Below are positions 1-64,000 of a stretch of 64,000 bases of DNA, one piece after another (position 1 is the stretch's first letter; each line of letters begins with the position of its first letter). The stretch comes from a virus. Under the pieces are notes generated by a model that was not told where the DNA came from, ran no database searches, and worked only from the letters and a program-made list of their open reading frames with translations. The DNA lies in the IMG/VR virus record IMGVR_UViG_3300032215_000682, positions 32,001 to 96,000 of that record; one strand, written 5' to 3'. The position numbers were made by a program, and so were the translations under genes.

Positions 1-330
1 TTTTCCTAGTCCTATTTCTTTAGAAAATTCAGATATGCTAACTTCTTGTTTTTTAGAAATGTCTTTAGAAATAGAATTATTATTCAATTTATTAAACTCT
101 TCAGAATTAAATACAGCTTTTCCATCTTTTTCTGAAATTAAAGTATTAACATTTTTATTCTTAGACACAGCTTTATCTGTAAGCCATTTAACAGCATCAT
201 TAAAATCTATTGTATTAAGAATTGTAGTATTTTCATTAATAATTTCATGAGCTTTTAAGAAATTCTTTGTAGAATTTAAAGCATCATCTTTAATGAAAAC
301 ATATTTTTTATCACATTTTGGATTGAACAT
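1..330 (-). CDS. 5' part of a probable further large virion cargo protein (runs off the window)
   Basis: ATG at 330 lies 18 nt after the RNAP stop. The frame is open to position 1 (MFNPKCDKKYVFIKDDALNSTKNFLKAHE...). It is missing from the ORF track because it is truncated. Confidence 0.7.
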   Translation of the reverse strand, partial: MFNPKCDKKYVFIKDDALNSTKNFLKAHEIINENTTILNTIDFNDAVKWLTDKAVSKNKNVNTLISEKDGKAVFNSEEFNKLNNNSISKDISKKQEVSISEFSKEIGLGK

Positions 331-348
331 TATTTATTATTTTTTGGT

Positions 349-3300
349 TTAAAAAGGAACAACACATCCAGGATTTTCTTCCTCTTCTATATTTTCATTA
401 GTTTTCTCTTCTGGAAGAATATCTTCATTATTAGAAATATTTTCTTGGTCTATGTCATCTTCTATTTCTAAATTAGGAATTTTTGTTTTATCATTATCAT
501 ATTTACTATTTAATTCTTCAATTTTTACATCACTATCTTCAACTTTAAGAGAAGATATTACAATGGCAATATTTTTAGGTCTTGTTAAAGCTGTATAAAT
601 ACTTTCAGATTTTTCTTTATTGGAAATAGGCCCAACAGACATAATATCTTTTTCATCCACTACCACTATATCATAAGTACTACCTTGTGATTTGTGAGAA
701 GTGATGGCATATCCATAATCTATTTTAGCATATTTGTTTTTAAATCCCCAAGCTTCTTCTAAAGCATTTCTATATTCAGGAGAACCTTTTAAAGCAAAAG
801 CTCTTTTAAACTTCTGAGAAACTAATTCTGCATATTTTTCTTTATCTTTTGACATTATAACATCTATTTCTCTAGGTACATCTTCTAATAATATTATAGC
901 AGAAACATAAGAAAGGTCATATCCATCTCTTTTAGGTAAAGATACAGTACTTATTTGACTCTCAAAAGAATTTTCTATATCTCCATAAGCGTCATTAAAA
1001 ATTATAAGTTCATTAGGATTGTATTCAGGACTATTTACACCAAATATAGAATCATGAACAAATTTATTAATACTTTGTCTAGTATTATTTTTATATGTCA
1101 CTACTTTAATGTGATTTGGATTATTAGTGTTTATAGCTTCTTTAAAACTCTCTAAAACATCTTGTTTAATATCATTAAAACTATTAGTGAAGATTAAAGC
1201 TCCTTTATCAGAGATAATATTTTTTCTTTCTTTTGCAGGATTTTCATCTGGAGTGTTTTTTTGAGAATTTTCCCAAAAATGGTCTGCAAATGGAAGTATT
1301 GGAGAATCTTCTCCCTGTCTTACTCTTTCTAATAATTTACTCTTATTTTTCCCTTCAAAAACAGGAGACTTTTTACTAAGAAGTTCTTTTTTATCTTTAT
1401 AATAAGAATTTTCAACAGTTCTTATTGGAGGAAGTTGACCCACATCTCCTAAAAATATCACTTTACTATTCTTAGATTTTTTTTCAAATATAAGTTCCAT
1501 AGCTTGTTCATTAATCATAGAAGCTTCATCTATAATAATAATATCAGCATTTTCAATAGGAACAGATTTTCCTTTCTGAGGAGCTTCAAATATTCCATTT
1601 TCTAAATTCATAGATTGTCCTAATAAAGAAGCAATACTTTCAAATCTAGCAAATATTTTACTTTTTCTAAATTTTTCCCTAATAACAGATTTAGCTTTAT
1701 GAGAAAGAGCTGCTACATATGTTGCACTATTAGGAAATTCTCTCACTATTTGTTCAGCTATTGTAGTTTTACCTGTACCTGCTTTTCCTTCAATGACATA
1801 ATATTCTTTAGGATTTCCATTTTTAATAAAATCAATTGCTCCTTTTACAGCTATTTCTTGCTCTGGATTTAATTTTACATTATTAACAGGAGTAGCATTC
1901 TTAGTTTCTTCTATATATTTCTGTTCTTGAGATTTAATTTCTATTTTAACAGGAGTTTTAAGTCTATAAGCTTCATCAGGATAAGTGTGTACAGTAATCT
2001 TCTTACCATCTTGTGTTACAGTTTTAATAAGTCCCAACCCTCTTTTCACTTTAGGTTTGATTATCTGAGCATTATTAGGAACAAAATACTTATCATACCA
2101 TTCTTCTAAAGCTCCATTATTTTCAACAATTTCTTTCATTAATGGTAACACTTTCTCTATTTCATTAGAAATCTGTTCTGTAGGAAGAAGGTTAGTCATA
2201 TATAAAGGACTCTTTTGTAGTCCAGATTGTATAAAAGCAAATGATATGTAGTCTTTAAAGAATTCTCTTACCTCTAAATTATCATCAAGTAGTCCTTTTT
2301 TAATTTCATCAATAGCAAGATTGACATCATTAGTTTCTCTAATTTCTGATTTAAGTTTTAGATTTACAATATCTTTTCTTAATGTTGATGTATTTCCTAC
2401 AAGATTTTTTAAAATAGAATATTTTTTAATTAATTCTGGTTGATCCTTTAATAGAGTGTTAAGTCTATTTATCATCTCCCCATTAAATTGTGGTCTAATA
2501 GTTTGAAAACTATTACCAAAAGCATTATAAGCATATCCTATTAAATCATTCTTAAATCTGGATTCAAACACTTCTTTATTTCCAAAAGAAGCATCATTAA
2601 TTTTAGACAATAGAAATTCATTCACTTGAGGAAGTTCTACAAGTTTAAAAAACTTTGTAAAATTCTTCTTAACAAAATCATTCATATCTAACATAGAAAT
2701 AACAGAATCTTTTTTAATAGCTTCTATTCCTTCTTTATTAAATATATTTTTAGATAGCACTTGTTGATATAATTCTTCTTTTTCAAAAGCTGCAAACACA
2801 CTACTTAAATTAGCTGTATCAAAATCTAAAGCACTTGTTAATTCTCTCAATCCTTGTGCTTGTTGCTCAAGTTCTATATAATGTTCTAAATAAGCTCTTT
2901 GTGTCTTATTACTACTTTTAGAAATGTTTTCTTTTAATGTTTCTTCATTGTATATATCAGAAGATTGTACAATAGCTTCTTTAACAGGAAATTTAGCTTG
3001 TAATATTTCTTTAATTTTTTTGTCAGTAAAATTATTATTTTGATATAAGCTATTTAACAATTTACCCATTTGAAAATTCTTTAACTTCTTTAAAGCTAAA
3101 TATTCTCTAATAATAGACTGATTTACTAAATAAATAGCCTCTCTAATAGGAACACCTGCATGATTTAAATATAGCAATGTTGGTGTAGCTTCAAATGTAG
3201 CACCTAAATCAAACACCCAAGCATCTTTAGCAACATCCACAAAACCATTCATAAATTGTGAAATGATTTCAGATATTTTATATTCTCCATTAGCATCATA

Positions 3301-6300
3301 TTCTTTAGCTAGAGATATATTTTTATATGGGCCATTTTGTATAAAATTATGTTTTAATAATATTTTATTTTCTACTCTTCCATCTGCATATTTAAAAAAA
3401 TTATTTAAAAACACATTATGTTGTTTAAAAAGTTGACTAAATGTATTATTCTTAGCAGCTATTCCTAATGATTTTTTACCCACTAAATTAGCTTCAAATT
3501 GATTAATTTGTGTACTATAATCAAATAATGTAGAATAACCCACTTTTTCTCCTCTTCCTACAATTTTTTTTATTTCATCAGCTAATGGTTTTAGGACAGA
3601 TGTACTATTAGGAGTGATTAAAGATTCAAACATTTCAGGTTGCTCCAAACTTTCTGAAAGCAAACTTATCATTTCATTTTGAAGAATAGATTTTTTATTA
3701 GTACTTGGTAAATCTTTTGTATATTCTTCAATTCCTTTGTCTAACACTTGTTTTAAAGCTGTTATTTTAACATGTATTGCATCACTTTTATCTCTAATGC
3801 TGCTAAAATGTTCATAAAGTTCTATAATATATTTTTCTATTTGCTCATCTCTTTCTTTTTTATTTTCAGCAGACTCTAATATATCTCTTACATCTTGTCT
3901 AACAAATCCAGGAAAACTTTCCAACACTCTATCATTTATTTTTTCACCAGAGCTTTTTTTATTAAATCTTGGTAATTTTCCATCCTCTTTAAAATTAGGA
4001 ATGTACATTGACACTTTATCAATATCAAAGTCAGATCCTGCAATTGCTGTAATTTCGCTAGGAAAAACAATTAAAGAACCTGTAGAAGCTGGAAGAAATT
4101 CTTGAACAATACAATTAAGCATAGAGTTAGCTCCTTGTACAGGAATCCTAACACCCACCATTGTTAATTCAGCTTCATGTTCTTTCACCCATTCTTCATC
4201 TTTTAATAGTTGATTTAAAGCTATTAAAGCTTTTCCTTCATCTATCTCATCAACTAACTTTAATAAAGGTTTAAATTTATTAATGCTCACCTTCACTTGC
4301 ATTTTAGAGACATATTTCTCTCCATTTTCTCTTTCTTTTATTTCATAAAGCTTTAATGTACTATCTTTGTCCCATCCTGTAAATGCTGTTTGAACAAAAT
4401 TATCACCATTAAGTTTATTTTTTATCAGCCTATTATTTACAATAGAAAGAAGAATATTAGTGATTTGTTGTCTAGCTAATGATGAATCAAGAGAATACAC
4501 TAAATTACCTTCATTGTCTGTTCTAATGAAGTCTTGTATATTATCAGGAACATCTTTAGTTTTAAATTCTTTTTGTAATAAAGAAGCAAGAGCTTTAAAA
4601 TTAATTGGCTCATTTTCACCTCTTATTCCAAGTTCTTTTCTTACTTTTTTAAGTTCTATATCAACTAATTGTTGTCTAGCAGCATTATATTTAGCAGAAA
4701 TAGCACCAATCTTTTCAGAAATAGGCTTACCTTCAGCAAACATATCTACATTAAACAATTTATTAAACTGTGTAGCAAATATAATATTAGGTTTCACTTT
4801 AGGCTCAATATACACTTGCTCTTTAAGATAGTGAAAATACTTATCATTTGTTAAATATGGCACTTCTCTATTCTCAAAATTCTCATATTCTCCATTATTT
4901 TGTAAAGCAGCTTTTTTACTACCACTTTCAAATATTCCATATCCTATATTTTCTTTAACAAGTTTATCATTAAATCCTTCTAATGGTTTACCTTTAATAG
5001 CTGTAGGTATCATAGGAATAAGAGCAAATTTATCAAATGCATCTATTCTCATCTCTTGTCCAAAATGTTGCTCTGTATTAGCTATTGTGCCTGAATACTG
5101 AGCCTTAATAGGAACAAAGTAATACAATTCATCATTAGATAGTTCAATGCCCTTAGCAGCCTTTATATAAGCTTTTTCAGCAAGGTCATTCCATTGTCCA
5201 ATTATAATTTTAAAATTTCTATAAAAGTCTAATGTACACAAACCAAGAGCATCTGTTTCATTTACTTCTTTAAAAGCTTTTAATGTATTGAATATATTAA
5301 ATGGAGCATCTTTGAGAGCTTCTTTAGCTTCATCTATGTCCATATTAATTAATTCTTCAGCATTCAATTCTTTTCCAGAATTTTTAATAACAGTGTTTAA
5401 ATAATCTTTTAAATAATTAGAAATTATCTCTCTGTCTTTTAATACAACAGACTTATAGAATTCTTCTACTTGTGATTTTTTATTAAACAAATGTTGTTCT
5501 TGCTCTCTGCCTGTAGCATTTAAATAATATTTAATAATAGGAGACATTACACTAAAATCTCCTGTAGCAGAATCAGCACTAAGCCTTTTATGTACATCTT
5601 CTGGAGATTTAAATTGTGTTACATCACCATTTATAAACATCATTTGTTCATAATTGTAAATATAATTACTTACAACAAAAGCATTAAGAGCATCTGAATA
5701 AGAAAGTCCTTTAGTATCTTTAATACCTATTTCATCAGAAAGGAAATTTCCTTTATTTGTAATTCCTTGTCTAATTTTATCCTTTAATACTTCCACCCTA
5801 TCTTTAAAGAATTTTTCTAAATAAAGCTTAATATCAATATCTTTAAATATATCATCAACATTATTATTAATATTTTCTAATATTTGTTGTTTAATTTCTT
5901 CAGGAAGAATATCTGTAAACATTCTAAATCCATTTCCTGTTTTGTCATATTTAGCAATAGTTATTCCTTTTTCTTCTTTAGCTTTTAAATATATTTTATT
6001 ATACCTTTGAATTTCAAGAATTGTGCCTTTTAAATAATCTTCAAATATATATTGAACAGGAGAAGGTATTAATTCACCATCAAATTCACTAATAGCAACA
6101 GGGTAATTACTGTTAGTGGTGTTATACTTAATTTGTGTACCAAAAGCACTTCCTTTATCACCATATCTCATATGCTCTACAATATTATTTGCAAAGAATG
6201 AGTTTATGTCATAGAATATTTTATCTACACTAAATAAGTCTGTAGTTTTATTACCAACAGTGTCTCTATCAGTTTTAGTTTTAAATCCTCCAATATCTAT

Positions 6301-9300
6301 TAATTCAATTTCAGAATTTCTTCTTTTTCCAAATTCTTCACCTTTTATAATAGAACCATCTTCATTTCTTATTTGAAACAAGGAATTCATCCAAAGTGTA
6401 TAATATAATGTAGGAGAAGCTTCAACAGAATACTCTGGAAAAACTTTAATAAAATCATCTAAATGAGGATATTTTTCTTTATTATTAATTTCAGCATATA
6501 TAAGGCTAGTTTTACTAAATTGAGAATATTGTGATTTCATATCTCCACTAGGAAGCATAGCCATATCTTCTTGCCATTCATTTGTAGCATCTACTTCTAT
6601 TTGTAATAAAGCATCAATATTTGTAGCTTCTGATTTATATTTAAATTCTTTAATTACACTAGCTACACCACTAATATCTTTAATAGGAGATGTTATTTTT
6701 TCACCATAGCTATTAAGATGGTTCATTCCATTGAATATTTGATTCAATGTATCTCTATTATCTGTAATTAAATCATTAAAAGCTTTAGAATTAATTGTAA
6801 CATCACTAAGATCTATACCTAAAGATTTAATAAAAGCAATTCTTGTAGCCTTATCTTTCTTTAAATATGTAACACCATCTTTAACAACACCAAAATCTTT
6901 ATTAACAGAAGCAACATCAAGAACATTTTCTCCAATATTATTTTTAATTATATAAGAAGATTCTTCTATTGTTTTAAAATTAGCTGTATAATATGCTCCT
7001 AATTTATCAATAGCTTTTGTAGCAGATTTAGTGTTATAAAACCCAAACCCTCCTTTAGTGACATCATATACACCTTCATATAAATCAATTTTAGGTTTAG
7101 AAAAAGCTTGTATAAAGGATTGTAAAAGGCTTATTTGTTTAATATTAAAATCTGGATAATTTTCTAATTTAGGAAGTCTTTGTGTGCCATCTTTATCATT
7201 ATTAACCAATTGCTTATACTCTGGATATGTATTTCCAAGTTTAACAATAACATCATACATTTCAACAGGATCTGTTATTCCTTGTGTTTGAGATTGTAGT
7301 CTATACCATGTAGTGCTTAATGGAAGAAGCTTTGGAAATCCAAATTCATTTAATTCTCCTCTACTAAGAGTACTCATTAAAAATACAATTTGCTTAGAAG
7401 CTTGTTTAATTGCTGATTTTTTATTCTTTTCAGCCCATTCTACAGCACCATCTCTTGAAGTTATTTCTTCTTCATCTATTTCTTCCTCTGTTTTAATACC
7501 ACTAAATATTGATGAATTCTCAATATAAGTTTTCTCAAACCCAAGCTTACCATTAAAATTATCATATAGAAATTGTAATTTATCTTGTTGTTCTTGAGGA
7601 AGTGTTTTTGATTCTAGTTTTTCTTGAATGCTAAGCCTAGCTATTTCATATAAACCATCAAAGTTTTTCTTTTTATCTTTCTCATCTGCTGTAAATAAAA
7701 CAAACATCTTACCCCTTCTTTCTAAACCAGAAGTTATAATAGAATCAATTGTGTTAATATAATTATTTACATCTACACTACCTATAATAGTACCATCTTC
7801 AGCAGTGTAAGCTTTATTAAGCTTTCCAAATAATGCATTATCTAATGAAGGAACATTATTAAAATTTCCTTTATATAATTGTTTATAAACATTCTTAATA
7901 GCATCAGGACTTATTAATTCCTTAATGAAATTCCACATTTTTTGAAATATTGTCTGCTTAGACAAATCTTTATCAAAATACATTGTTCCATTAGAATCAG
8001 CATATTCCTCAAAATTATCACCTAGCACTTCCTCAGCTTCTCTATTTGTTAATTGAGAATATGATTTAGAAACTAAATTTCCAGATTCATTAATAACATC
8101 TACAACACCAGATTTCTTTCTTAATTCATTATATAAATTAGTTTTTTGTCTTTTTGTTAAGAATAATTGTGAAAATCCATGATAGGCTTCATGATATAAC
8201 ATTCTTGGTGTAGCAGTGTTATATAATGTAACAACATTATTAAAGAATGTTGCATGAGCACCGCTATTAACAATATTGATAAAGTGATTTAAATCAATGT
8301 ATTTAGAAAGAGGAGAATTACTCCACCAATTTTTTACATCATTCCATTCTGTTTTAGAAAATTTAGATTCTAGTTTTCTATCTTTATTTAAAGTATCAAA
8401 TATATCATCTATACTTTTCTCAGGTTTTTGTTTAATTTCTTGCTTAACCTCTTGTTTTGTTTCAGGAACAATGTTTGAATTATCCAACATCATGTAAGTG
8501 CCTGGAAAAGCTTGTACACCATTTTCAGCAAGTGTGTTAGAATCTTTATTATCATTTACATCCTGATAAATTTCTGTATTATCTATTATGAATTTCTCAT
8601 AATTTGCAGGTGTAAAACTAAGCTTTCCCTCTGTAAATATAGGAATATTAAAATTCTCAATATTTTCAGGAGATTTTATATTTAATTTCTTTTGTCCTAA
8701 AGCATGTTCTAAAGCTGTTTTAAATGCTTCAGAATTATTTTCAGAGATATTAAAATAATAAAAATCACCAACAGCTTTTACATTTTCTATATTAGAAACA
8801 GAATATCCATCAAAAAAACTTTTATTAATTTTAAAAGCTTCTCCATTTTTATTCTTAATTAGATTAATAGAAGCATCATCAAAATATACATATCTATCTA
8901 AATAAGCTTTTCTAGCTTCAAATGTATTTAATGTTTTACTAACATTATTTTCTGTTCCTATTTTAATAAGAGCATCAATAAAGCCTTGCAATTGAACATT
9001 AGCTAAATAAGGTCTTGAAATAGGGAAATTAAATCCATATTTACTATCTGTTAAATAAGATTGTCCTTCAACTCTATCAACAGAAGGTGTTGTACTAACA
9101 AATAATTTTAAATCAGGAAGTGTGTATTCAGCTTGTTCTAATTTTCCATTTAAATTTTTAATAAATGATGATGTAGAAATAGGCTCTGTTACAAACTTTG
9201 TAACAATTCCCATCCCCATTCTTTGAATACTAATAAGAGAAATAGGTGGATTTTTTCTCAAAGCCTCTAAATCTTCTAATGACTGTCTATATGTTGCAGC

Positions 9301-12300
9301 ATCTTCTTCTTTTTCATCAATATCTTTTCTTTTAAAACCTATTGTATTAGTTTTTTTATCATACACTTCTGTAGCAGATCCTGTTATTTTACCATTAGTA
9401 TCTTTATAAATTGTAGGAACATTGTGTATAGAGGGAATTCCTCCTTCTATAACAACATTTCCTTTTTCATTAAAATAAACAATTTGACCAGCATTATCTA
9501 CTAGAACAAGTTTAACATGAGTGTTTTTTTCTTCAATAGCATCTATTTCTTCTTTAGTTTTTGTATCATAACCATTTTCTTTCCAATAGTTATAATCATT
9601 TTCAAATAAGTCTTTAATAGCTTCAAGTCCTCCTAATCTTTCAATTAATTGAGAAGGTCTAAGCACTAACACTTTAAAATCATTAATAGTTTCTTTATTA
9701 ATTATCTGTTTTAAGCTATTCTGAGCTGTTTTAAATGCTTTGTCAACTGTTGTAGTGCCTTTTAGAAACAAATTGCCTACAGAGGTTCCTATGCTATGTA
9801 AAACAGAAGCAGGTACAGGTGGTGGTAATACTTTTTCAACATCATCAATATCAACATCAATTTCATTAGGAATATTTTCTGAATGTAATTCATTTATTCC
9901 TTTTTGTATTTCTATGTCATTATTTATTAATTCTTCAGCACTTACATCACCTTCTTCAGCTTTTGTATTAATATCTTCTATTTCTTTTTGAGAATACACT
10001 TTTTTAAATGGAGAAAGTTCTTTTACAGGTATATTATTTAATACATGTTCACCATCTACTAATGTTACAACATTATCAACAGGAAGAGAACCTAATTTAT
10101 AAGCATTTCCTTTATATTGAACATCATCATTTACTTTTAAGTTTTTAACAAACTCTTCTTTATTAATATTTCCTTCTAAAGGAATATCACTTCTTGATTC
10201 AATATTTTTAATAGCAGCTTCAATTTGAGCTTTTTGATGATCTTCTAATACTACACCAGATTCTCTTATTCTTTTTTCAAAATCTTCTAAAACTTGAATA
10301 GCATTGTCTTCCTTTTCTTGAGGTGTTCCTTCTTTAGCATAAATAGCCTCAGCTTGTTTAATAGCTTCATCAATATTTAAAGCAGCTTTTTTCTCTTGTT
10401 CTATTTCTAATTTTCTATTTTCTAATTTAGTTTTGATTTCATCTAAATTTTTTAAATACTCTTTAGAAATATTAGGAATATTACCTTCAGATTTTATAGC
10501 ATTTAATCCCTTGTCAAGTTCTGATGGGTCATTTATCTTTTTAATATTTGCATCAGAATATTCTTTATTAAATACTTCTAATGAAGATTTTGTATAATCA
10601 TTAGGAATTGTTTCTTCTTGAGCTTTTGCTATAGTTTCTTCAGAAGTGGGTATATTAGCAGCTTCTTCTTGATATTCTGCTTGTTTTTCTTCATTTTTAG
10701 TTAATAGAACAGCTTCACCAAGATTTTCTCTCTTGATTTCATTTTGAAATATCTCAAATTTTCTAGACTCTTTAACAGAATCAGAAAGATGTGGCATACT
10801 ATCTATTAAAGTATTCCAAGATTCATTTCTATCAAATATTTCTTTATATACATCCACTAATTTATTTCTTCTATCAGCTTCTTCTTTAGTTATAAAACCT
10901 TTTTCCACCATATCATCTATATTACTTTTATAAATGCTAGGAGACATTCCCACTCTATATTGACTATATTGAAGTTGTGTATTATTATTTTTCATTCCTA
11001 ATACACCTTCTAATGTAGATTGTGGAAGCATTGTTGCTATAGTTTGTAAAGCTGTATTAACAATGTTTTCTAATGTAAGAGGATCTGTATTTTGATAATC
11101 TTTTTTATAATTAGCTTGAGCATATTTAGTAGCAAAATGATTCATAAAAAGTCCCATTTCTTCTTCTAAAGTTTCTGCACCACTAGTTTTTAGAAATCCT
11201 TTTGCAAATTGTTTAAGAGCATCTCTATCTGTTTTATATAAAAATTTATATAATAGTGGAGCTGCTTCCTTACTTGTAATACTTTCTAATGTTCTTTCAA
11301 TAGCTTTTCTAAATACAGCATCATCTGTAAGTTTTATCAAATCATGTATCTCACCACCAGCAATAGCTAATTTAGTGTTTACTAAAGCATCTACACCTAT
11401 TCTTTCTGTAAGTCCTTCTATACCAGCTCTAACAGCTCCAAGCTTTGTAGATTGATTTAATGTAAGTCCTTTATCAAGTTCTTGTTTAATCATTTCAGGC
11501 CCAAATAAATATACAGAAGGAAGTATAAATCCTGTTGTTGTTCCTATAGCATATTTTGTAGCTTGTAATGTTCCAAGTTCTGCATATTGTGCAGCTTTAA
11601 CAAAAGCATTTGTACCTTCTTTAGCTAATAAACCTTCTTGATATTTTATTGTATTTCCTAATAAAGCTTCTTCAAGTCCTTCTCCTGCAAGTCCTGGTGT
11701 ACCTATTAACACCATATCAAGTCCTACATTACCTATTTGATATAACCAACCAGCAACATCTACTTTAGGCATCAATGTTCCAGCTTTCCATTTAACAGAT
11801 TCTAATTGAGAAAGATTAACTTTCTGACCATTTCTAGTAGTTTGGAGTTCTTGTGTATCTTCACCAGTATTCCATAATGATAATAATGCAGCTTCTTTAT
11901 AAGATGCTTTTCTACCATCATTTAATGTAATAGTGCCATCTTTACTAAAATCTGTAAAACCATTTGTTGCAGCAGCATAAGCTCCCCAAAATCCTGAATC
12001 TTTTTTTAGCATTAAAGCTTTACCTCCTAATAAAGAAAGAGCACCAAGTCCCACTTTACTAGCCCAATTAGAGTTTTCCCACATATTATTTAAATAATCT
12101 TGATGGGCTTCATAATGTGTTAAATCAGGAATTTCTTTTTTAATAACATCATCTACTCTTTTTATATATTTATTTTCTTCTTCAATTTTACTTTGAAGAT
12201 TTATTTTCATTTTAGTAAGGTCTGCATATTGTTGTTTACCTTCATCAGATAATTTGTTTACAGGATCTTTTAATAAAACATCAAACTGTTTTAATTGTTT

Positions 12301-13485
12301 ATTAATATCATCTAATATAGGTTGATCTTTATATTTTATTAAAGCTTGCAAACTCTGTTTATCATTTACAGCTCCATTATATAAATATCTTTGAACATCA
12401 ATAGACCCATCTTTCAATCCTGTTCCATGATTTGTTAATTGTAATTGAGCAAGAGCTTTTATTTCTCCATTCTCATTACCAGCATTTTGCACTTTAATTG
12501 CATTATCTATCCATTTATCTTTTAATGCTTCAGTGTTTAAAAGATTTGTATTCTTTAAAAATTTAACAGAGTTTTCTAAATCTTGATTAGTAGAAGTTAA
12601 ATCATTTAAATCTTGTATAGGATCTAACACTTTCTTACCATCTTCTGATTTAGTAGAAGAAATAGATTTATCTGTAGCAAGTTTAGTTTTTACATTTGTT
12701 AATAATTCATTTAAGGCTTTATAAGCTTTTTCTGAATTTTCTATTGTAGTAGCATTCTGTTTTTGTAAATTTTGTCTAATAACAGGATCTGATTCATCAG
12801 CTATTGCTAATTGTGCAGATGTAGAAGCAGTTTTATGTTTCCACATTTCATTTGTAATCTTAGCAGCCTCATCAGAAAGTTGCTTACTATCATAAACTGG
12901 AGTAGTTTCAGAATAAGTTTTCTTACCATCTTTGTTTACATCCACTTGATAACCTAAACCAGCAGTGTTTATATTATAATATTGTGAAGCATTTTCTAAT
13001 ACTTTTCCTAAATTATCAGAATATGTTGTAGCATCTATACTATTAGAAGGAAGATTAGAATTAGTTAAAAGTTTATTAGTTGTATTTCCTACATTAATAG
13101 TATTAGTAGTAGGTTTTAATAATGAAGTAAATTCATTAACATCTCCTTTGAATCCTTGTTGTTTATTATTTAAATAATGATCTACAATAAATCCAGAAGC
13201 TAATGGAACTGCTAAAGCACTAAATACCATTCCAGCCCAATCTGTCTTCTCTTCTTTTGGTGGAGCAGGTGTAAAAAATTCAGGAAATTTAGAATTAAGT
13301 TCTTCAGGAGTTTTATATTTTCCTGATGAAACTGTTGCTACATAATCATGAGCAGACTTTACTAAATTACTATCTCCATTAAATTCAGGAAATTTAGTAA
13401 GCAAATCTCCATCTGTTAAATATGGTTTTGCTTCTATTGTAGATTTAAAGTCATCTAATGTTTGTTGATTTATATTATTTGGCAT
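349..13485 (-). CDS. Giant virion-packaged RNA polymerase (crAss-like) with zincin HExxH motif and C-terminal SF1B Dda/RecD-like helicase
   Basis: Catalytic AGSDFDIDK (nt ~4018-4032), GVRIPVQGANSM, ETDALG and FMNGFVDVAKD are typical of crAss-like vRNAP. HEAYH lies at 8179-8193. Helicase motifs are GKAGTGKTT, IIDEASM, GDVGQLPP, YAITSHKSQGSTY and YTALTRP. Confidence 0.92.
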   Translation of the reverse strand: MPNNINQQTLDDFKSTIEAKPYLTDGDLLTKFPEFNGDSNLVKSAHDYVATVSSGKYKTPEELNSKFPEFFTPAPPKEEKTDWAGMVFSALAVPLASGFIVDHYLNNKQQGFKGDVNEFTSLLKPTTNTINVGNTTNKLLTNSNLPSNSIDATTYSDNLGKVLENASQYYNINTAGLGYQVDVNKDGKKTYSETTPVYDSKQLSDEAAKITNEMWKHKTASTSAQLAIADESDPVIRQNLQKQNATTIENSEKAYKALNELLTNVKTKLATDKSISSTKSEDGKKVLDPIQDLNDLTSTNQDLENSVKFLKNTNLLNTEALKDKWIDNAIKVQNAGNENGEIKALAQLQLTNHGTGLKDGSIDVQRYLYNGAVNDKQSLQALIKYKDQPILDDINKQLKQFDVLLKDPVNKLSDEGKQQYADLTKMKINLQSKIEEENKYIKRVDDVIKKEIPDLTHYEAHQDYLNNMWENSNWASKVGLGALSLLGGKALMLKKDSGFWGAYAAATNGFTDFSKDGTITLNDGRKASYKEAALLSLWNTGEDTQELQTTRNGQKVNLSQLESVKWKAGTLMPKVDVAGWLYQIGNVGLDMVLIGTPGLAGEGLEEALLGNTIKYQEGLLAKEGTNAFVKAAQYAELGTLQATKYAIGTTTGFILPSVYLFGPEMIKQELDKGLTLNQSTKLGAVRAGIEGLTERIGVDALVNTKLAIAGGEIHDLIKLTDDAVFRKAIERTLESITSKEAAPLLYKFLYKTDRDALKQFAKGFLKTSGAETLEEEMGLFMNHFATKYAQANYKKDYQNTDPLTLENIVNTALQTIATMLPQSTLEGVLGMKNNNTQLQYSQYRVGMSPSIYKSNIDDMVEKGFITKEEADRRNKLVDVYKEIFDRNESWNTLIDSMPHLSDSVKESRKFEIFQNEIKRENLGEAVLLTKNEEKQAEYQEEAANIPTSEETIAKAQEETIPNDYTKSSLEVFNKEYSDANIKKINDPSELDKGLNAIKSEGNIPNISKEYLKNLDEIKTKLENRKLEIEQEKKAALNIDEAIKQAEAIYAKEGTPQEKEDNAIQVLEDFEKRIRESGVVLEDHQKAQIEAAIKNIESRSDIPLEGNINKEEFVKNLKVNDDVQYKGNAYKLGSLPVDNVVTLVDGEHVLNNIPVKELSPFKKVYSQKEIEDINTKAEEGDVSAEELINNDIEIQKGINELHSENIPNEIDVDIDDVEKVLPPPVPASVLHSIGTSVGNLFLKGTTTVDKAFKTAQNSLKQIINKETINDFKVLVLRPSQLIERLGGLEAIKDLFENDYNYWKENGYDTKTKEEIDAIEEKNTHVKLVLVDNAGQIVYFNEKGNVVIEGGIPSIHNVPTIYKDTNGKITGSATEVYDKKTNTIGFKRKDIDEKEEDAATYRQSLEDLEALRKNPPISLISIQRMGMGIVTKFVTEPISTSSFIKNLNGKLEQAEYTLPDLKLFVSTTPSVDRVEGQSYLTDSKYGFNFPISRPYLANVQLQGFIDALIKIGTENNVSKTLNTFEARKAYLDRYVYFDDASINLIKNKNGEAFKINKSFFDGYSVSNIENVKAVGDFYYFNISENNSEAFKTALEHALGQKKLNIKSPENIENFNIPIFTEGKLSFTPANYEKFIIDNTEIYQDVNDNKDSNTLAENGVQAFPGTYMMLDNSNIVPETKQEVKQEIKQKPEKSIDDIFDTLNKDRKLESKFSKTEWNDVKNWWSNSPLSKYIDLNHFINIVNSGAHATFFNNVVTLYNTATPRMLYHEAYHGFSQLFLTKRQKTNLYNELRKKSGVVDVINESGNLVSKSYSQLTNREAEEVLGDNFEEYADSNGTMYFDKDLSKQTIFQKMWNFIKELISPDAIKNVYKQLYKGNFNNVPSLDNALFGKLNKAYTAEDGTIIGSVDVNNYINTIDSIITSGLERRGKMFVLFTADEKDKKKNFDGLYEIARLSIQEKLESKTLPQEQQDKLQFLYDNFNGKLGFEKTYIENSSIFSGIKTEEEIDEEEITSRDGAVEWAEKNKKSAIKQASKQIVFLMSTLSRGELNEFGFPKLLPLSTTWYRLQSQTQGITDPVEMYDVIVKLGNTYPEYKQLVNNDKDGTQRLPKLENYPDFNIKQISLLQSFIQAFSKPKIDLYEGVYDVTKGGFGFYNTKSATKAIDKLGAYYTANFKTIEESSYIIKNNIGENVLDVASVNKDFGVVKDGVTYLKKDKATRIAFIKSLGIDLSDVTINSKAFNDLITDNRDTLNQIFNGMNHLNSYGEKITSPIKDISGVASVIKEFKYKSEATNIDALLQIEVDATNEWQEDMAMLPSGDMKSQYSQFSKTSLIYAEINNKEKYPHLDDFIKVFPEYSVEASPTLYYTLWMNSLFQIRNEDGSIIKGEEFGKRRNSEIELIDIGGFKTKTDRDTVGNKTTDLFSVDKIFYDINSFFANNIVEHMRYGDKGSAFGTQIKYNTTNSNYPVAISEFDGELIPSPVQYIFEDYLKGTILEIQRYNKIYLKAKEEKGITIAKYDKTGNGFRMFTDILPEEIKQQILENINNNVDDIFKDIDIKLYLEKFFKDRVEVLKDKIRQGITNKGNFLSDEIGIKDTKGLSYSDALNAFVVSNYIYNYEQMMFINGDVTQFKSPEDVHKRLSADSATGDFSVMSPIIKYYLNATGREQEQHLFNKKSQVEEFYKSVVLKDREIISNYLKDYLNTVIKNSGKELNAEELINMDIDEAKEALKDAPFNIFNTLKAFKEVNETDALGLCTLDFYRNFKIIIGQWNDLAEKAYIKAAKGIELSNDELYYFVPIKAQYSGTIANTEQHFGQEMRIDAFDKFALIPMIPTAIKGKPLEGFNDKLVKENIGYGIFESGSKKAALQNNGEYENFENREVPYLTNDKYFHYLKEQVYIEPKVKPNIIFATQFNKLFNVDMFAEGKPISEKIGAISAKYNAARQQLVDIELKKVRKELGIRGENEPINFKALASLLQKEFKTKDVPDNIQDFIRTDNEGNLVYSLDSSLARQQITNILLSIVNNRLIKNKLNGDNFVQTAFTGWDKDSTLKLYEIKERENGEKYVSKMQVKVSINKFKPLLKLVDEIDEGKALIALNQLLKDEEWVKEHEAELTMVGVRIPVQGANSMLNCIVQEFLPASTGSLIVFPSEITAIAGSDFDIDKVSMYIPNFKEDGKLPRFNKKSSGEKINDRVLESFPGFVRQDVRDILESAENKKERDEQIEKYIIELYEHFSSIRDKSDAIHVKITALKQVLDKGIEEYTKDLPSTNKKSILQNEMISLLSESLEQPEMFESLITPNSTSVLKPLADEIKKIVGRGEKVGYSTLFDYSTQINQFEANLVGKKSLGIAAKNNTFSQLFKQHNVFLNNFFKYADGRVENKILLKHNFIQNGPYKNISLAKEYDANGEYKISEIISQFMNGFVDVAKDAWVFDLGATFEATPTLLYLNHAGVPIREAIYLVNQSIIREYLALKKLKNFQMGKLLNSLYQNNNFTDKKIKEILQAKFPVKEAIVQSSDIYNEETLKENISKSSNKTQRAYLEHYIELEQQAQGLRELTSALDFDTANLSSVFAAFEKEELYQQVLSKNIFNKEGIEAIKKDSVISMLDMNDFVKKNFTKFFKLVELPQVNEFLLSKINDASFGNKEVFESRFKNDLIGYAYNAFGNSFQTIRPQFNGEMINRLNTLLKDQPELIKKYSILKNLVGNTSTLRKDIVNLKLKSEIRETNDVNLAIDEIKKGLLDDNLEVREFFKDYISFAFIQSGLQKSPLYMTNLLPTEQISNEIEKVLPLMKEIVENNGALEEWYDKYFVPNNAQIIKPKVKRGLGLIKTVTQDGKKITVHTYPDEAYRLKTPVKIEIKSQEQKYIEETKNATPVNNVKLNPEQEIAVKGAIDFIKNGNPKEYYVIEGKAGTGKTTIAEQIVREFPNSATYVAALSHKAKSVIREKFRKSKIFARFESIASLLGQSMNLENGIFEAPQKGKSVPIENADIIIIDEASMINEQAMELIFEKKSKNSKVIFLGDVGQLPPIRTVENSYYKDKKELLSKKSPVFEGKNKSKLLERVRQGEDSPILPFADHFWENSQKNTPDENPAKERKNIISDKGALIFTNSFNDIKQDVLESFKEAINTNNPNHIKVVTYKNNTRQSINKFVHDSIFGVNSPEYNPNELIIFNDAYGDIENSFESQISTVSLPKRDGYDLSYVSAIILLEDVPREIDVIMSKDKEKYAELVSQKFKRAFALKGSPEYRNALEEAWGFKNKYAKIDYGYAITSHKSQGSTYDIVVVDEKDIMSVGPISNKEKSESIYTALTRPKNIAIVISSLKVEDSDVKIEELNSKYDNDKTKIPNLEIEDDIDQENISNNEDILPEEKTNENIEEEENPGCVVPF

Positions 13486-13486
13486 A

Positions 13487-15124: not shown

Positions 15125-15151
15125 AAATTTTTATATATATTATATATAACA

Positions 15152-15205
15152 CAAAGATAATAAAAATAAATGAATATTCCTAATATCTCAGTGTTTTATG
15201 TGAAT
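15152..15205 (-). promoter_or_regulatory. Bacteroidota sigma-A-type promoter plus upstream palindromic box
   Basis: Minus-strand TATCTTTG (15152-15159) and TTAGG at the -33 position. Box ctcagtgttttatgtgaat at 15187-15205. Confidence 0.65.
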
Positions 15206-15209
15206 TTAA

Positions 15210-18158: not shown

Positions 18159-18159
18159 T

Positions 18160-18777: not shown

Positions 18778-18801
18778 ATATGAATTTTATTTTTCATTAT
18801 T

Positions 18802-19203: not shown

Positions 19204-19214
19204 TATTATTAATT

Positions 19215-19730: not shown

Positions 19731-19732
19731 AA

Positions 19733-25633: not shown

Positions 25634-25642
25634 TATTATTTT

Positions 25643-27881: not shown

Positions 27882-27888
27882 AATTGTG

Positions 27889-27942: not shown

Positions 27943-27956
27943 TTAGTGAATATAAA

Positions 27957-27989: not shown

Positions 27990-27999
27990 GTGTTAATTG

Positions 28000-29298: not shown

Positions 29299-29328
29299 TA
29301 ATTATATTTAATTAAAATTTCAATAATA

Positions 29329-29360
29329 CAAAGATATGAATAATAATTCACAATTCCTAA
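29329..29360 (-). promoter_or_regulatory. Bacteroidota-type promoter for the exonuclease cassette
   Basis: TATCTTTG at 29329-29336 and TTAGG at 29356-29360. The palindromic box is absent here. Confidence 0.6.
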
Positions 29361-29373
29361 TTTTTAACAAAAA

Positions 29374-53652: not shown

Positions 53653-54336
53653 TTATTTATTAATTTTTAAATTATATTTACTCTTAATATCTCTATAATT
53701 ATTTTCTTTAAATAATGTATTATGTATTGTTGCAAATAAAATATTCAATTTTTTAGATATTTCTAATATTGAAAAATTTTCATTATACATTTTAAATATT
53801 TCTATAATTATTTCTTCTGAATATCTTCTTCTTATATTAGGTTTTCCTTTAGTACAATTTATTATTGATAATATTTGTTTTTCTGTTTTTGGTCTTTTAC
53901 CTAATTTCTTTCCATTTTCTATAACTAATTTAGAAGCTACTCTACCCTCTTTCCATTTAATACCCTTTTTTGTACTACTCATTTTTTCTCTAACTTCTTT
54001 AATAGGTGAATATGTACCTTTTCCACCATTATTACTATTTACGAGTTTAGCTCCTAGAGATTTAAAAAGTAATATAGTTTCTATTTCACATTCATTTATA
54101 CTTTCTAATTTTACACATCTTAATATTTCCATATTAATAGTATTACCTTTAAGTAATTCAAATTGAATCCATTTATGCTTATAATATTTTAATCTCTTAC
54201 TCTCACAAATATGACTTCTTAATCTTGCTTTAGGATTTTTTGAATACCCTATATATCTAATAATATTATTACTAGAAGATTTTAATCCATAAATATAACT
54301 AATTTCAGTGTAATTATTCATATTACCATTTGCCAA
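53653..54336 (-). CDS. Free-standing GIY-YIG homing endonuclease
   Basis: YIYGL...RYIGYSK.P..RL..H, E, LVNSNNGG, NUMOD3-like repeats and a C-terminal HTH. Confidence 0.8.
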   Translation of the reverse strand: MANGNMNNYTEISYIYGLKSSSNNIIRYIGYSKNPKARLRSHICESKRLKYYKHKWIQFELLKGNTINMEILRCVKLESINECEIETILLFKSLGAKLVNSNNGGKGTYSPIKEVREKMSSTKKGIKWKEGRVASKLVIENGKKLGKRPKTEKQILSIINCTKGKPNIRRRYSEEIIIEIFKMYNENFSILEISKKLNILFATIHNTLFKENNYRDIKSKYNLKINK

Positions 54337-56891: not shown

Positions 56892-56904
56892 TTAAAATAT
56901 ATTT

Positions 56905-57210
56905 TGTATTTTCAATTAGACATAAGAAGCCCTTACACATTTAAGTGCTTTTTGTTTTTAATTTAGATTTTCATACTACCAGGTGTCTTACTTATAACCA
57001 CATTTGCATGTTTTCCTTTCTGTCCACTTATTGCTTCTTGCTTTTAAAAGAAGTAGGAAATCCTGTTTCTTATATCTAAACCATTTTTGTCACTATTGGA
57101 GAAAATCAATTTCAACTATATTTCTATGTCTACTCTCCCAATCCAACTTCTGAGCTACTATTTAATAGCTGATAGAAATTATTCCTAAAGTCAAAATAAT
57201 TATCTGTGAC
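56905..57210 (-). ncRNA. Candidate structured RNA/5' leader (~300 nt)
   Basis: No ORF. Starts right after a TATCTTTG promoter and contains several hairpins and long-range complementary segments. Confidence 0.4.
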
Positions 57211-57214
57211 TATA

Positions 57215-57339
57215 CAAAGATAATATATGTTTTTGACATTTGCAAGTTTTTTACAAACTTTAACATATTATTATTTTAGTGTCTGCAAATATAAACTATT
57301 AATTTGACATTTCCAAATGTCTCATAAAATTATGTGAAA
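57215..57339 (-). promoter_or_regulatory. Two tandem Bacteroidota-type promoters for the late block, the distal one with the palindromic box
   Basis: TATCTTTG (57215-57222) with TTG at -33. TATATTTG (57286-57293) with TTTG at -33. Box at 57321-57339. Confidence 0.7.
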
Positions 57340-57528
57340 ACACTGAAAACTCTCTTTTATCTATTTAACAAATTTTATGTTAATTTATTTTAACATTAGA
57401 GCAAAATATTTTTGTTTATATAGTATATTTTTGACCAGAGGATTTTTAATTTTTATTAATTCTAAAATCTAAATAGAACTTCCCCAAGGTGAAAAGTTTC
57501 TTTGAACAGAGGAAACTTGTTTACTCAA

Positions 57529-57555
57529 TCTATTATGTATATAATACATAATAGA
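57529..57555. repeat. Perfect 12-bp inverted repeat in the strand-switch region
   Basis: tctattatgtat-ata-atacataataga. Confidence 0.85.
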
Positions 57556-57776
57556 GAATATGATAGGTGAGTTTAAAAATAACCCATTAGAGACACTTTT
57601 ATTTAAAATACACCCTCCTATACCACTTAGCCTATATTAAGCCCCCTATACTAGCTTAAAATTTGTTTTATGTGTGTTTTATAGTAAACCCAGATCCAAA
57701 AAAGACCCACACCAAATCTTGAGGAGCATCTATGCCCCCTCTATCTATTATTCATTCATAAAAAATTCAGACAAAA

Positions 57777-60026: not shown

Positions 60027-60111
60027 GCCTCCATGATGAAAAGGTAGACATGAAAGATTTAAAATCTTTTTTCCCTAAAAGGAAGTGTTGGTTCAAATCC
60101 AACTGGAGGTA
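60027..60111 (+). tRNA. tRNA-Leu(TAA)
   Basis: Acceptor GCCTCCA/TGGAGGT, D-loop GG, anticodon arm AAAGA-TTTAAAA-TCTTT, long variable arm, GTTGG-TTCAAAT-CCAAC. Confidence 0.85.
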
Positions 60112-60139
60112 CTATTAATTAATTTAAAAACAAAATAAC

Positions 60140-60876: not shown

Positions 60877-60950
60877 TACTTCTTAGTTCAATTGATTAGA
60901 GCATCTGACTGTTAATCAGAAGATTATTGGTTCAAATCCAATAAAAATAG
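60877..60950 (+). tRNA. Degenerate tRNA-Asn(GTT), probable pseudogene
   Basis: TCTGA-CTGTTAA-TCAGA and ATTGG-TTCAAAT-CCAAT are intact. The acceptor TACTTCT/AAAAATA has two C-A mismatches and the D-loop lacks GG. Confidence 0.7.
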
Positions 60951-60981
60951 CATTATTTATTAACACACAAAAAACACATTT

Positions 60982-62312: not shown

Positions 62313-62388
62313 CTTTCCATAGTTCAATTGGATAGAATATATTACTTCTAATAATATGATGGAGATTCAAATTCTCCTGGAAAGACCA
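62313..62388 (+). tRNA. tRNA-Arg(TCT) with encoded CCA
   Basis: CTTTCCA/TGGAAAG acceptor, TATTA-CTTCTAA-TAATA, GGAGA-TTCAAAT-TCTCC, ends ACCA. 76 nt. Confidence 0.85.
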
Positions 62389-63313: not shown

Positions 63314-63568
63314 ATAACACACTACTATTAGTTAGATAATATAGTGGAAGTATAGCGAAAGTTGGGGAATGTTCAAATCATTCCAATAATGTATAACATA
63401 TTATGAGAAAACAGAAACAATGGTTATATGAATATATAGGAACCCTCATAGATATGAGATAAGTGGTGTGTTAATGCCTTTTGATAGTTTTGGAACATTA
63501 ATTTGTTTATGGGGAGGTGATTTAATTTCACCAAAAAACTATTATTTTTAAAAATTTAAATAAATATT

Positions 63569-63817
63569 ATGAATACTTTAGAAGAAGGAATAAAAATTTT
63601 AGAAGATTTACCAATTGGAACTTATAAGTGTTATGATAAAAATAATGAATTATTTATTTTTATGAAAGTAAAAAGTCCTCATGATAATGATGAAAGTTTA
63701 GATATTTATGCAATAGGTTCAGATGAGCCATATACTGCTAAAGAAATTTTAAAATTTAATATAATTAATTCAAATTCTGAATTTCATAAATATTTTAATA
63801 TTGAATTAATAAAATAA
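63569..63817 (+). CDS. Hypothetical protein
   Basis: ORF with A-rich leader. Confidence 0.55.
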   Translation: MNTLEEGIKILEDLPIGTYKCYDKNNELFIFMKVKSPHDNDESLDIYAIGSDEPYTAKEILKFNIINSNSEFHKYFNIELIK

Positions 63818-64000
63818 ATTATTTATAAAGTTAAAAAATTTTTTTAAAAATTTTAAAATGGGGGGTGAGAAGAATAGATTAGATTGATTAGTTAAATAAT
63901 TAAGCAAGTGAATGATATTTTACACTTTAAAAATTAATATCAAACAATAAATGCAACAGAATTGTCTGCCTTTACCTTTGATGATGCAATGAATTTTGTA

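Follow-up and report, generated by a model that had tools for sequence, protein, structure and literature searches.

A crAss-like phage genome nearly devoid of the CG dinucleotide, and recurrence of this purge among virulent phages of Bacteroidota

We found a crAss-like phage that lacks about 97% of its expected CG dinucleotides, in genes, in spacers and in tRNA genes. The same purge recurs among independent virulent phages of Bacteroidota and is absent from the resident DNA of their hosts. We consider it probable (roughly 0.6) that purifying selection on the DNA keeps the genome near CG-free, as new CGs would expose the phage DNA to a CG-reading host activity.

The crAss-like phage and the extent of its CG depletion

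The analyzed stretch of 64,000 nucleotides, hereafter the window, is part of a genome of 115,636 bp with 26.9% G+C and a terminal repeat of 123 bp. In total, 18 CGs were counted in the window compared to about 1,210 expected from base composition (observed/expected ratio, o/e, of 0.015), and 53 compared to 2,096 in the full genome (o/e 0.025). GC, which has the same composition as CG, reached an o/e of 1.22 in the window. The computed count recovered exactly the 18 positions listed in a first-pass annotation of the window, bore out its rough expectation of the order of a thousand CGs, and confirmed the absence of CG between about 8.3 and 27.8 kb, where 19,576 bases (8262 to 27838) form a CG-free run. 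The remark that GC and GATC are common held for GC only; GATC is present yet under-represented (108 vs. 234 by Markov expectation).

The depletion is 20- to 60-fold across codon positions, intergenic DNA, the 885-bp promoter spacer and tRNA genes. CG o/e amounted to 0.027 at codon positions 1–2, 0.016 at positions 2–3 and 0.067 across codon boundaries (28 vs. 418 expected); intergenic DNA of the whole genome contained 4 CGs vs. 100 expected, and the four tRNA genes, three of which lie inside the window, contained none. Depletion in all of these classes indicates that the target of the purge is DNA rather than codon choice, as the first-pass annotation had proposed in speaking of an entire purged dinucleotide, and the CG-free spacer (Table 1) extends it to non-coding DNA containing regional promoters. 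Several single observations made there were reproduced as well: arginine is nearly always encoded by AGA or AGG (1,025 AGR codons vs. 14 CGN codons), a tRNA-Arg(TCT) is carried by the phage, the T-loops of the three window tRNAs read TTCAAAT, and the homing endonuclease gene, of the GIY-YIG type, is depleted too. Residual CGs share no common flanking motif, and every NCGN class is purged. Orphan genes, i.e., those without a homologue in relatives, show a CG o/e of 0.028 vs. 0.024 for core genes, and throughout the studied phage and its relatives the purge level is uniform within each genome, differing from genome to genome. By computation, CG alone among the dinucleotides can disappear from both strands of coding DNA while every amino acid and amino-acid pair stays encodable. 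A tmRNA was not detected near the window end (ARAGORN; Rfam at gathering thresholds).

Table 1. Features of the window and their CG content
Feature	Position	Strand	Observation
Whole window	1..64000	.	18 CG, o/e 0.015; part of 115,636-bp genome
4,378-aa ORF, crAss-type giant virion protein	349..13485	-	3 CG in 13.1 kb
Longest CG-free run, 19.6 kb	8263..27837	.	Spans part of the giant virion protein gene and tail/cargo genes
Upstream region of late operon	15125..15209	-	Bacteroidota-type -7 box TATCTTTG, preceded by a GGAATATT-type box
Upstream region	29299..29373	-	Bacteroidota-type -7 box TATCTTTG
Portal gene, phrog_6547	46456..49155	-	2 CG; marker for relative search and tree
Terminase large subunit gene, phrog_6681	49163..51256	-	1 CG
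GIY-YIG homing endonuclease gene	53653..54336	-	1 CG; purged like its neighbours
885-bp spacer between divergent gene blocks	56892..57776	.	0 CG vs. 15 expected; 15 GC
tRNA-Leu(TAA)	60027..60112	+	No CG; T-loop GGTTCAAATCC
tRNA-Asn(GTT)	60877..60951	+	No CG; T-loop GGTTCAAATCC
tRNA-Arg(TCT)	62313..62388	+	No CG; reads AGA, the codon taking the place of CGN

Judged by its marker proteins, the phage is crAss-like and belongs to Crassvirales in the broad sense: the terminase matches phrog_6681 (E = 2e-65), the portal protein matches phrog_6547 (E = 3e-122), and a tblastn search with the portal matched 157 phage records, including named Crassvirales and crAss-like phages. The late block comprises ORFs of 4,378 aa and 3,212 aa, both with homologues in relatives. 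On a portal tree obtained by a quick tree search, the lake clade of the phage groups with Lbo-JY46, phi17:2 and csAssE-Sib (in GenBank unclassified Caudoviricetes or Lightbulbvirus) and lies outside Steigviridae, Suoliviridae and Intestiviridae, i.e., without placement in an ICTV family of Crassvirales. The phage genes use no Shine–Dalgarno sites, and promoters are of the TAnnTTTG type. Both features indicate a Bacteroidota host, which the first-pass annotation had assumed and which is probable on this promoter and ribosome-binding evidence. The phage collection, searched at the DNA level, yielded no near relative, scanning 185,579 prokaryote genomes for the portal revealed no prophage or binned copy, and no integrase was present among about 50 scanned ORFs of the phage.

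Recurrence in other phages and absence from host DNA

All eight lake relatives are purged (CG o/e 0.06–0.33). Among cultured crAss-like phages, this applies to ΦcrAss001 (0.03), DAC15 (0.009) and Flavobacterium phage FPSV-D27 (0.088), and likewise to Kolpuevirus ‘frurule’ and cr85_1 (computed from GenBank records; 0.009–0.13 for the cultured set). Furthermore, the 178-kb B. thetaiotaomicron phages DAC16 and DAC22, which are unrelated, have a CG o/e of 0.11–0.15 (DAC16 0.11). CG is kept by crAss002 (0.77), B40-8 (1.16) and p-crAssphage. The system had been called unusual in the first-pass annotation, which is apt in that the purge is not standard among related phages, but not in that it recurs in ΦcrAss001, DAC15, ‘frurule’, FPSV-D27 and DAC16. 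Neither codon usage nor host composition explains the purge. In B. thetaiotaomicron, plasmid p5482 has a CG o/e of 1.17, in contrast to the values of the virulent phages DAC15, DAC16 and DAC22, and in F. psychrophilum the temperate phage 6H (1.05) contrasts with FPSV-D27. The rpoB regions of 70 evenly sampled Bacteroidota genomes ranged from 0.85 to 1.56, and the minimum among 67 rRNA-bearing loci was 0.74.

The quick portal tree points to at least three origins of the purge. Polymerase type was considered as its cause and rejected, as the purged relatives include carriers of both PolB-like and PolA polymerases and are purged equally. In the 50 kb of ΦcrAss001 that were examined, 22 of the 44 residual CGs fall inside a 4-kb tRNA array, a concentration attributable to functional constraint on the sequence there. 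The searched literature yielded no account of CG or dinucleotide bias in crAss-like phages, and the CG purge goes unmentioned in the Crassvirales review and in Yutin et al. 2021. The window is an independent, non-gut instance of a CG purge undescribed in the searched literature.

Candidate causes of the CG purge

Mutation and selection were compared in one pair of relatives, L060 and L061 (6.1% divergence), on the basis of unpolarised differences. Synonymous C/T differences before G numbered 10 compared to about 38 expected (Poisson P = 7e-8), an expectation that is the same under CG hypermutability and under a stopped process. New synonymous CGs were about fourfold rarer than expected, and A/G differences after C amounted to 2.8% vs. 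about 10%. Synonymous CGs were retained at 19 of about 24 sites, where hypermutability predicts 21%, and overall CG retention (0.68–0.80) compares with 0.69–0.81 for C in other contexts. In this pair, CG creation is thus suppressed while existing CGs are not hypermutable, a pattern that favours purifying selection as the cause rather than methylation with deamination. A uniform weak-selection model over-predicts the differences (21.9 expected vs. 10 observed, P = 0.004), so that heterogeneity among sites must be assumed. The pair G002/G003 was useless for a polymorphism test, as G002 matches part of G003 at 100% identity, and the pairs L013/14, L015/16 and L017/18, used as controls, differed too little to be informative.

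These data bear on the proposal that CG decays to TG and CA without selection, be it through host CpG methylation of the M.SssI or M.MpeI type or through a CG-preferring deaminase. The TG/CA o/e of the studied genome (1.12) comes near the 1.18 expected if all lost CGs had become TG or CA, the purge level is uniform per genome with orphan genes included, and there is a precedent in Mycoplasma penetrans with M.MpeI, whose CpG depletion has been tied to its CpG methyltransferase (Wojciechowski et al. 2013, as cited in PMC11282364). We nevertheless regard such decay, which the first-pass annotation had listed as a possible cause, as unlikely. Existing synonymous CGs in L060/L061 are kept like other C sites, CG creation being suppressed instead, and the TG/CA excess is small and inconsistent, with values of 0.96–0.99 in the equally purged G002 and G003 and of 0.93–1.19 in unpurged relatives, which renders it non-diagnostic. 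CGN arginine codons cannot be lost synonymously by deamination, yet they make up only 14 of 1,039, and resident plasmid and temperate phage DNA of the same host species keep CG. A search of the phage for methyltransferase genes detected none, PF00145 (C5) and PF01555 (N4/N6) both being absent from the studied genome; PF00145 is also absent from the relatives G001, G002, G004 and G005. C5 methyltransferases in G003 were dropped as a lead to CpG methylation because they are confined to a foreign segment of 43.5 kb that represents another phage, with a separate terminase and a CG o/e of 0.5, joined to the crAss-like genome. A phage base modification that CG cannot carry or tolerate, also raised in the first-pass annotation, appears extremely improbable. 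The genome does encode a cluster of ATP-grasp, amidotransferase and amidoligase genes, a COOH-NH2 ligase and several glycosyltransferases, all with unassigned substrates; however, it contains neither a ThyA-like hydroxymethylase gene nor a methyltransferase, the ligase cluster is missing from the equally purged G003 lineage, and known hypermodifications replace a base genome-wide, not in a single dinucleotide context.

Phages tend towards the dinucleotide composition of their hosts, and no bacterial dinucleotide varies more widely than CpG (PMC11282364). Copying of the signature of an unsampled, nearly CG-free host is conceivable, but very unlikely in view of the rpoB and rRNA-locus minima given above and of the CG retained in the resident DNA of hosts of cultured purged phages (p5482, 6H). 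Bacteria are not known to fall below a CG o/e of about 0.3, let alone to come near 0.02. Alternatively, the cause could lie in the phage itself, either its own CG-acting nuclease or a CG-containing replication, packaging or transcription signal forcing self-sparing avoidance. This would agree with the lineage-specific occurrence within phages of one host genus (crAss002 and B40-8 vs. ΦcrAss001), with the multiple origins on the portal tree, and with the HNH, PD-(D/E)XK, GIY-YIG and Metallophos proteins and the stand-alone exonuclease encoded by the genome. The purge of the unrelated DAC16 and DAC22, which indicates the host rather than crAss machinery, and the equal purge in relatives with different polymerases make it improbable, and no gene specific to the purged lineages was identified. 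Selection on RNA, by an RNase or RNA sensor attacking CG in transcripts like vertebrate ZAP, has in its favour that coding sequence makes up about 93% of the genome, nearly all of which is transcribed, and strand tests cannot tell it from selection on DNA, since CG is identical on both strands. It is nonetheless quite unlikely: the divergent spacer and intergenic DNA are purged like coding DNA, and GATATC, CAGCTG and GATC are purged alongside, which is typical of DNA-level restriction avoidance.

In the studied phage, GATATC (0 vs. 28.4) and CAGCTG (0 vs. 17.4) are avoided in addition to GATC (Markov expectation), and relatives purge different palindrome sets, e.g., GATC, CTAG and GGCC in ΦcrAss001. 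Motif avoidance is therefore a working strategy in the group. Across 28 phages, however, CG o/e and the avoidance of palindromes without CG were uncorrelated (Spearman rho about 0), and crAss002, p-crAssphage and B40-8 combine strong palindrome avoidance with retained CG, so that general restriction pressure alone cannot predict which phages purge CG. To our knowledge, no restriction enzyme reads bare CG. Bacteroides and Flavobacterium possess very large and rapidly changing restriction repertoires in which many motifs contain CG (PMC10333322 and its Supplementary Data 11; PMC11837570), and hosts of the purged cultured phages carry CG-containing specificities, e.g., CCGG and GCSGC (PMC11837570; PMC10333322). 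CG-containing motifs showed no visible over-representation among the Bacteroides methylation motifs of PMC10333322 that were examined.

Of the three causes proposed in the first-pass annotation, CG-directed restriction or defence fits best, although no agent was found and CG loss does not correlate with palindrome avoidance. A reading as selection is supported, among other evidence, by the purge of virulent phages alongside unpurged resident or temperate DNA of the same hosts. Under such selection, a host activity would read CG or CG-containing words in incoming or replicating phage DNA, and variants exposed to it by new CGs would be removed. Restriction-site avoidance would then have widened from defined sites to a whole dinucleotide, a step that is affordable for CG alone, as no amino acid or amino-acid pair is forbidden. 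As the agent we would expect a defence of the host that targets DNA: a single reader of bare CG, or else many changing restriction specificities that contain CG and add up in their effect. More tentatively, it is possible, if rather doubtful, that some Bacteroidota (e.g., the host of the studied phage, B. thetaiotaomicron, B. intestinalis and F. psychrophilum) carry an undescribed defence recognising bare CG in DNA that enters the cell, a bacterial equivalent of CpG sensing, from which virulent phages belonging to several unrelated families escaped by CG-free rewriting of entire genomes.

Implications and comparison with known systems

A CG-reading activity, should Bacteroidota possess one, would represent a new class of anti-phage defence and a major unrecognised determinant of phage success in gut and lakes. 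Cultured phage–host pairs are available in DAC15 or DAC16 with B. thetaiotaomicron, ΦcrAss001 with B. intestinalis, and the FPSV phages with F. psychrophilum. Even if there is no single reader, the finding shows that the loss of one protein-neutral dinucleotide lets phages forestall an entire class of restriction specificities. CG-free design may matter for delivering DNA to Bacteroidota, and CG o/e provides a cheap virome marker of the purged lifestyle. Conversely, host prediction and binning by composition will misplace CG-purged phages.

Among known systems, restriction-site avoidance by non-temperate dsDNA phages (Rusinov et al. 2018, PMC6286503) resembles the present case in the elimination of short words by a virulent, unmodified phage, which the studied phage presumably is. 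The purge in the studied phage and its relatives extends to classical palindromes, and temperate phages of the same host show no purge. The known cases concern orthodox Type II sites of 4–8 bp, whereas here a 2-bp word is lost in any flank, and CG purging does not follow palindrome avoidance across phages; dinucleotides go unmentioned in that study. Depletion by methylation and deamination, as in vertebrates and M. penetrans, shares the specific under-representation of CG and, for the studied genome, some TG/CA excess. It differs in that depletion in the studied phage is about tenfold deeper and hits arginine codons and tRNA genes equally, that this phage encodes no methyltransferase, and that its relatives show no CG hypermutability.

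We know of no bacterial counterpart of the CpG sensors ZAP and TLR9. In functional terms, the proposed explanation comes closest to the CpG suppression of vertebrate viruses that escape them (Takata et al. 2017, as cited in PMC11282364), with CG as a non-self mark; however, these sensors are vertebrate proteins, while the target in the studied phage appears to be DNA within a bacterial cell, and the purge of non-gut relatives argues against an animal sensor as the common cause. The cultured purged crAss-like phages match the studied phage in the magnitude of the purge, are all virulent, podovirus-like and Bacteroidota-infecting, and show no signs of modification in the genome pieces examined. 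They are distant from it, with portal proteins 22–25% identical to its own and unpurged lineages in between, and are mostly gut or fish-pathogen phages, whereas the relatives in the studied clade are environmental metagenome contigs.

Extent of CG loss in the genome

Across the window, we counted 18 CG dinucleotides where about 1,210 were expected, an observed/expected ratio (o/e) of 0.015 that is far from the value for GC (1.22), which has the same base composition. The first-pass annotation had listed 18 sites, set against an expectation on the order of a thousand, and had described GC as common; its count and all 18 positions were exact. The window corresponds to bases 32,001–96,000 of a single IMG/VR virus record. 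That record, 115,636 bp long, has a G+C content of 26.9% and a terminal repeat of 123 bp; as a whole, it contained 53 CGs vs. 2,096 expected (o/e 0.025), and its longest CG-free stretch was 19.6 kb. We called 135 ORFs, covering 93% of the genome. Every class of sequence was depleted: o/e was 0.027 for codon positions 1–2, 0.016 for positions 2–3 and 0.067 at codon boundaries (28 vs. 418 expected), and intergenic DNA contained 4 CGs vs. 100 expected. Arginine is indeed encoded almost always by AGA or AGG (1,025 AGR vs. 14 CGN codons), and TCG, CCG, ACG and GCG codons occurred eight times in total. CG was also absent from a spacer of 885 bp that separates divergent gene blocks (0 vs. 15 expected; 15 GC) and from all four tRNA genes. 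Since the loss extends over all codon positions, intergenic DNA, the spacer and the tRNA genes, it is a property of the DNA itself and not of codon preference. This near-complete loss, hereafter the purge, is real and extreme and acts at the DNA level.

Gene content and probable host

Terminase and portal matched crAss-type PHROGs. By portal identity, the nearest cultured phage was 'Leptolyngbya phage' Lbo-JY46 (41%), followed by the Cellulophaga phages phi17:2 and phi4:1 (28%) and Crassvirales (22–25%). Shine–Dalgarno motifs were found at 5% of genes vs. 11% background in this genome, and the Bacteroidota −7 box TAnnTTTG was enriched upstream of genes in sense orientation (10 vs. 2.8 ± 1.7), resembling ΦcrAss001, B40-8, FPSV-D27 and phi17:2. 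Together, both signals make the Bacteroidota host proposed in the first-pass annotation likely, though not proven. Lbo-JY46 (PP438436, 92,305–125,312), nearest among cultured relatives, carries a cyanophage label; it lacked Shine–Dalgarno sites and showed the TAnnTTTG box upstream of genes 8 times vs. 1.0 expected, and it may in fact infect a Bacteroidota member of the culture. In several minus-strand operons of the present genome, a second box lies immediately upstream of the TAnnTTTG promoter box (see table).

No C5 methyltransferase, N4/N6 methyltransferase or ThyA-like enzyme was found encoded in this genome. It does encode a MazG-like protein, glycosyltransferases, several nucleases and a divergent, PolB-like polymerase; matches to the class II ribonucleotide reductase insertion domain (PF21995, E = 6e-4) and to the UDG superfamily were weak, the former below cutoff and the latter under Pfam's cutoff. 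An ATP-grasp / amidotransferase / amidoligase cluster is encoded as well; the proteins of this kind common to this genome and its closest relative G001, and absent from the relative G003, are an ATP-grasp-like protein, two Peptidase_C26/GATase proteins, a class II amidotransferase, an Amidoligase_2 protein and a phiEco32-type COOH-NH2 ligase. A stand-alone exonuclease gene is placed in the late structural block, distant from the polymerase gene. A tmRNA at window positions 63861–64000 and beyond was detected neither by ARAGORN nor by Rfam at gathering thresholds.

Coordinates of selected features in the window and in the whole record
Feature	Window	Genome	Remark
GGAATATT / AATATTCC-type box with TAnnTTTG box	15125–15209, 27882–27999, 29299–29373	22,595–22,691	
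3'-5' exonuclease (RNase_H_2 / PolB-exo-like)	28522–29298 (−)		258 aa
ATP-grasp, amidotransferase, amidoligase and COOH-NH2 ligase genes		520–6268 and 98,254–100,862	outside window
tRNA-His(GTG)		98,164–98,235	

Distribution of the purge among phages and hosts

Portal-based scans of IMG/VR and JGI metagenomes yielded eight further non-identical contigs, which form a lake clade with this genome. All eight were purged, each to its own degree: o/e was about 0.05–0.06 in the crAss part of G003, 0.08 in L062, 0.12 in G001 (portal identity 70%) as well as in G005 and L059, 0.17–0.19 in L061 and L060, and 0.33 in G004. Sister lineages were not purged in this manner (Lbo-JY46 0.48, phi17:2 0.43, csAssE-Sib 0.92). 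The CG level was uniform within each genome, and genes for which no relative had a homologue were purged like core genes (0.028 vs. 0.024 in this genome, 0.13 vs. 0.10 in G001, 0.068 vs. 0.050 in G003). Polymerase type varies among purged genomes, being PolB-like in this genome and G001 and PolA in G003. The latter, a 168.9-kb 'DTR' record of IMG/VR, consists of a ~125-kb crAss-like genome (o/e about 0.05) and a 43.5-kb unrelated phage (bases 1–43,800; own Terminase_3 gene, SNF2 helicase, C5 and N4/N6 methyltransferases, o/e about 0.5). Its composition changes sharply near 43.8 kb; the record is a chimeric assembly, or else it holds a nested element. G002, which comes from another metagenome, is a contig of 66,660 bp and matches G003:48,915–115,574 with 100% identity; one phage genotype was thus recovered unchanged in two samples.

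For cultured phages, o/e was computed from GenBank records. Comparison with other Crassvirales, suggested in the first-pass annotation, gave a divided picture: the purge recurs in ΦcrAss001 (0.03 over 50 kb), DAC15 (0.009 over 35 kb), Kolpuevirus 'frurule' (0.04) and cr85_1 (0.13), yet crAss002 (0.77), p-crAssphage (0.65) and three Suoliviridae (0.60–0.88) are unpurged. Flavobacterium phage FPSV-D27 was purged as well (0.09); phi14:2 (0.57), Azobacteroides phage ProJPt-Bp1 (0.59), B40-8 (1.16) and B124-14 (1.19) were not. In a quick portal tree, purged genomes formed three separate groups (the lake clade, Bacteroides-infecting Asinivirinae and Fipvunavirus) with unpurged lineages between them. 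The phenomenon is independent in this phage and visible in published cultured phages too. DAC16 (MT074137) and DAC22 (MT074141), 178-kb B. thetaiotaomicron phages with 21–23% G+C, had an o/e of 0.11–0.15 and almost no GATC; the pieces read shared no detectable protein with this genome and were not of crAss-like type, so that CG purging crosses phage families on this host. Host-resident DNA retains CG, as in B. thetaiotaomicron plasmid p5482 (1.17) and the temperate F. psychrophilum phage 6H (1.05). In the rpoB regions of 70 genomes drawn evenly from Bacteroidota, o/e was 0.85–1.56.

Maintenance and possible cause of the purge

L060 and L061, a close pair within the lake clade, show 6.1% divergence across 14.5 kb. 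Synonymous third-position C/T differences affected 9–14% of sites before A, C or T and 2.0% (10/499) before G; fourfold-site A/G differences affected about 10% after G or T and 2.8% after C. A two-state model fitted to the non-CG contexts predicted ~38 differences before G under CG hypermutability at equilibrium, vs. 10 observed (P = 7e-8), and about the same number if purging had stopped. Synonymous CGs were kept in both genomes at 19 of ~24 sites, like C elsewhere (0.69–0.81), where hypermutability would leave 21%. CG is thus not decaying fast; its creation is what is missing. In this one pair of relatives, with unpolarised differences, suppressed CG creation favours purifying selection maintaining the purge. 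A uniform weak-selection coefficient over-predicted too (21.9 vs. 10, P = 0.004), which argues for strong selection at most sites and a tolerated or constrained minority; the residual CGs of ΦcrAss001, half of them in its tRNA array (50 kb read), are consistent with such constraint. Methylation with deamination, one cause offered in the first-pass annotation, is disfavoured by this retention and by the lack of a methyltransferase gene in this genome; such decay fails both features that could be tested, and shares with other causes the probability left by the reading we prefer.

That reading, to which we assign a probability of about 0.6, is defence evasion by word avoidance: a host defence would penalise CG words, and the phage would evade it by erasing the whole dinucleotide. 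Word avoidance itself is demonstrable. This genome lacks GATATC (0 vs. 28 expected) and CAGCTG (0 vs. 17), and GATC, previously taken for common, is under-represented (108 vs. 234); ΦcrAss001 lacks GATC (0 vs. 148) and GGCC (0 vs. 25) and has almost no CTAG; and GGCC and GATATC are purged in G003, CAGCTG in G004 and CTGCAG in G005. When each dinucleotide and its reverse complement were banned in turn, CG was the only one whose ban made no amino acid or amino-acid pair unencodable, so a phage can erase it on both strands at no protein cost. Residual CGs shared no context and every NCGN class was purged; we know of no enzyme set that explains this. Among 28 phages, CG o/e showed no correlation with how strongly non-CG palindromes were avoided, and crAss002 and B40-8 purge palindromes yet keep CG. 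Both findings speak against general restriction pressure being enough as a cause. Of the causes named in the first-pass annotation, CG-directed restriction or defence accounts best for the data. Unrelated virulent B. thetaiotaomicron phages are purged, unlike resident DNA, which makes an activity of certain hosts that is specific for CG a real possibility, but within the preferred reading we hold a dedicated CG reader to be rather unlikely. Bacteroides carry hundreds of methylation motifs, differing between isolates and many containing CG (PMC10333322), and the main barriers of F. psychrophilum include CCGG and GCSGC (PMC11837570); with word avoidance, this supports restriction avoidance generalised to a dinucleotide.

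Neither the 2023 Crassvirales review nor Yutin et al. 2021 mentions CpG, dinucleotides or restriction, and full-text literature searches found no report of a CG purge. Methylation-driven CpG decay is known in vertebrates and M. penetrans. Here, the phage is probably virulent, the purge most likely maintained by selection and the host probably a member of Bacteroidota. Viral CpG suppression against ZAP and TLR9 is the nearest functional analogy, but relies on vertebrate sensors. Most similar among described phenomena is the way in which non-temperate phages avoid Type II recognition sites; the study of it dealt with defined host-enzyme sites and did not consider dinucleotides (PMC6286503), whereas here a whole dinucleotide is avoided.
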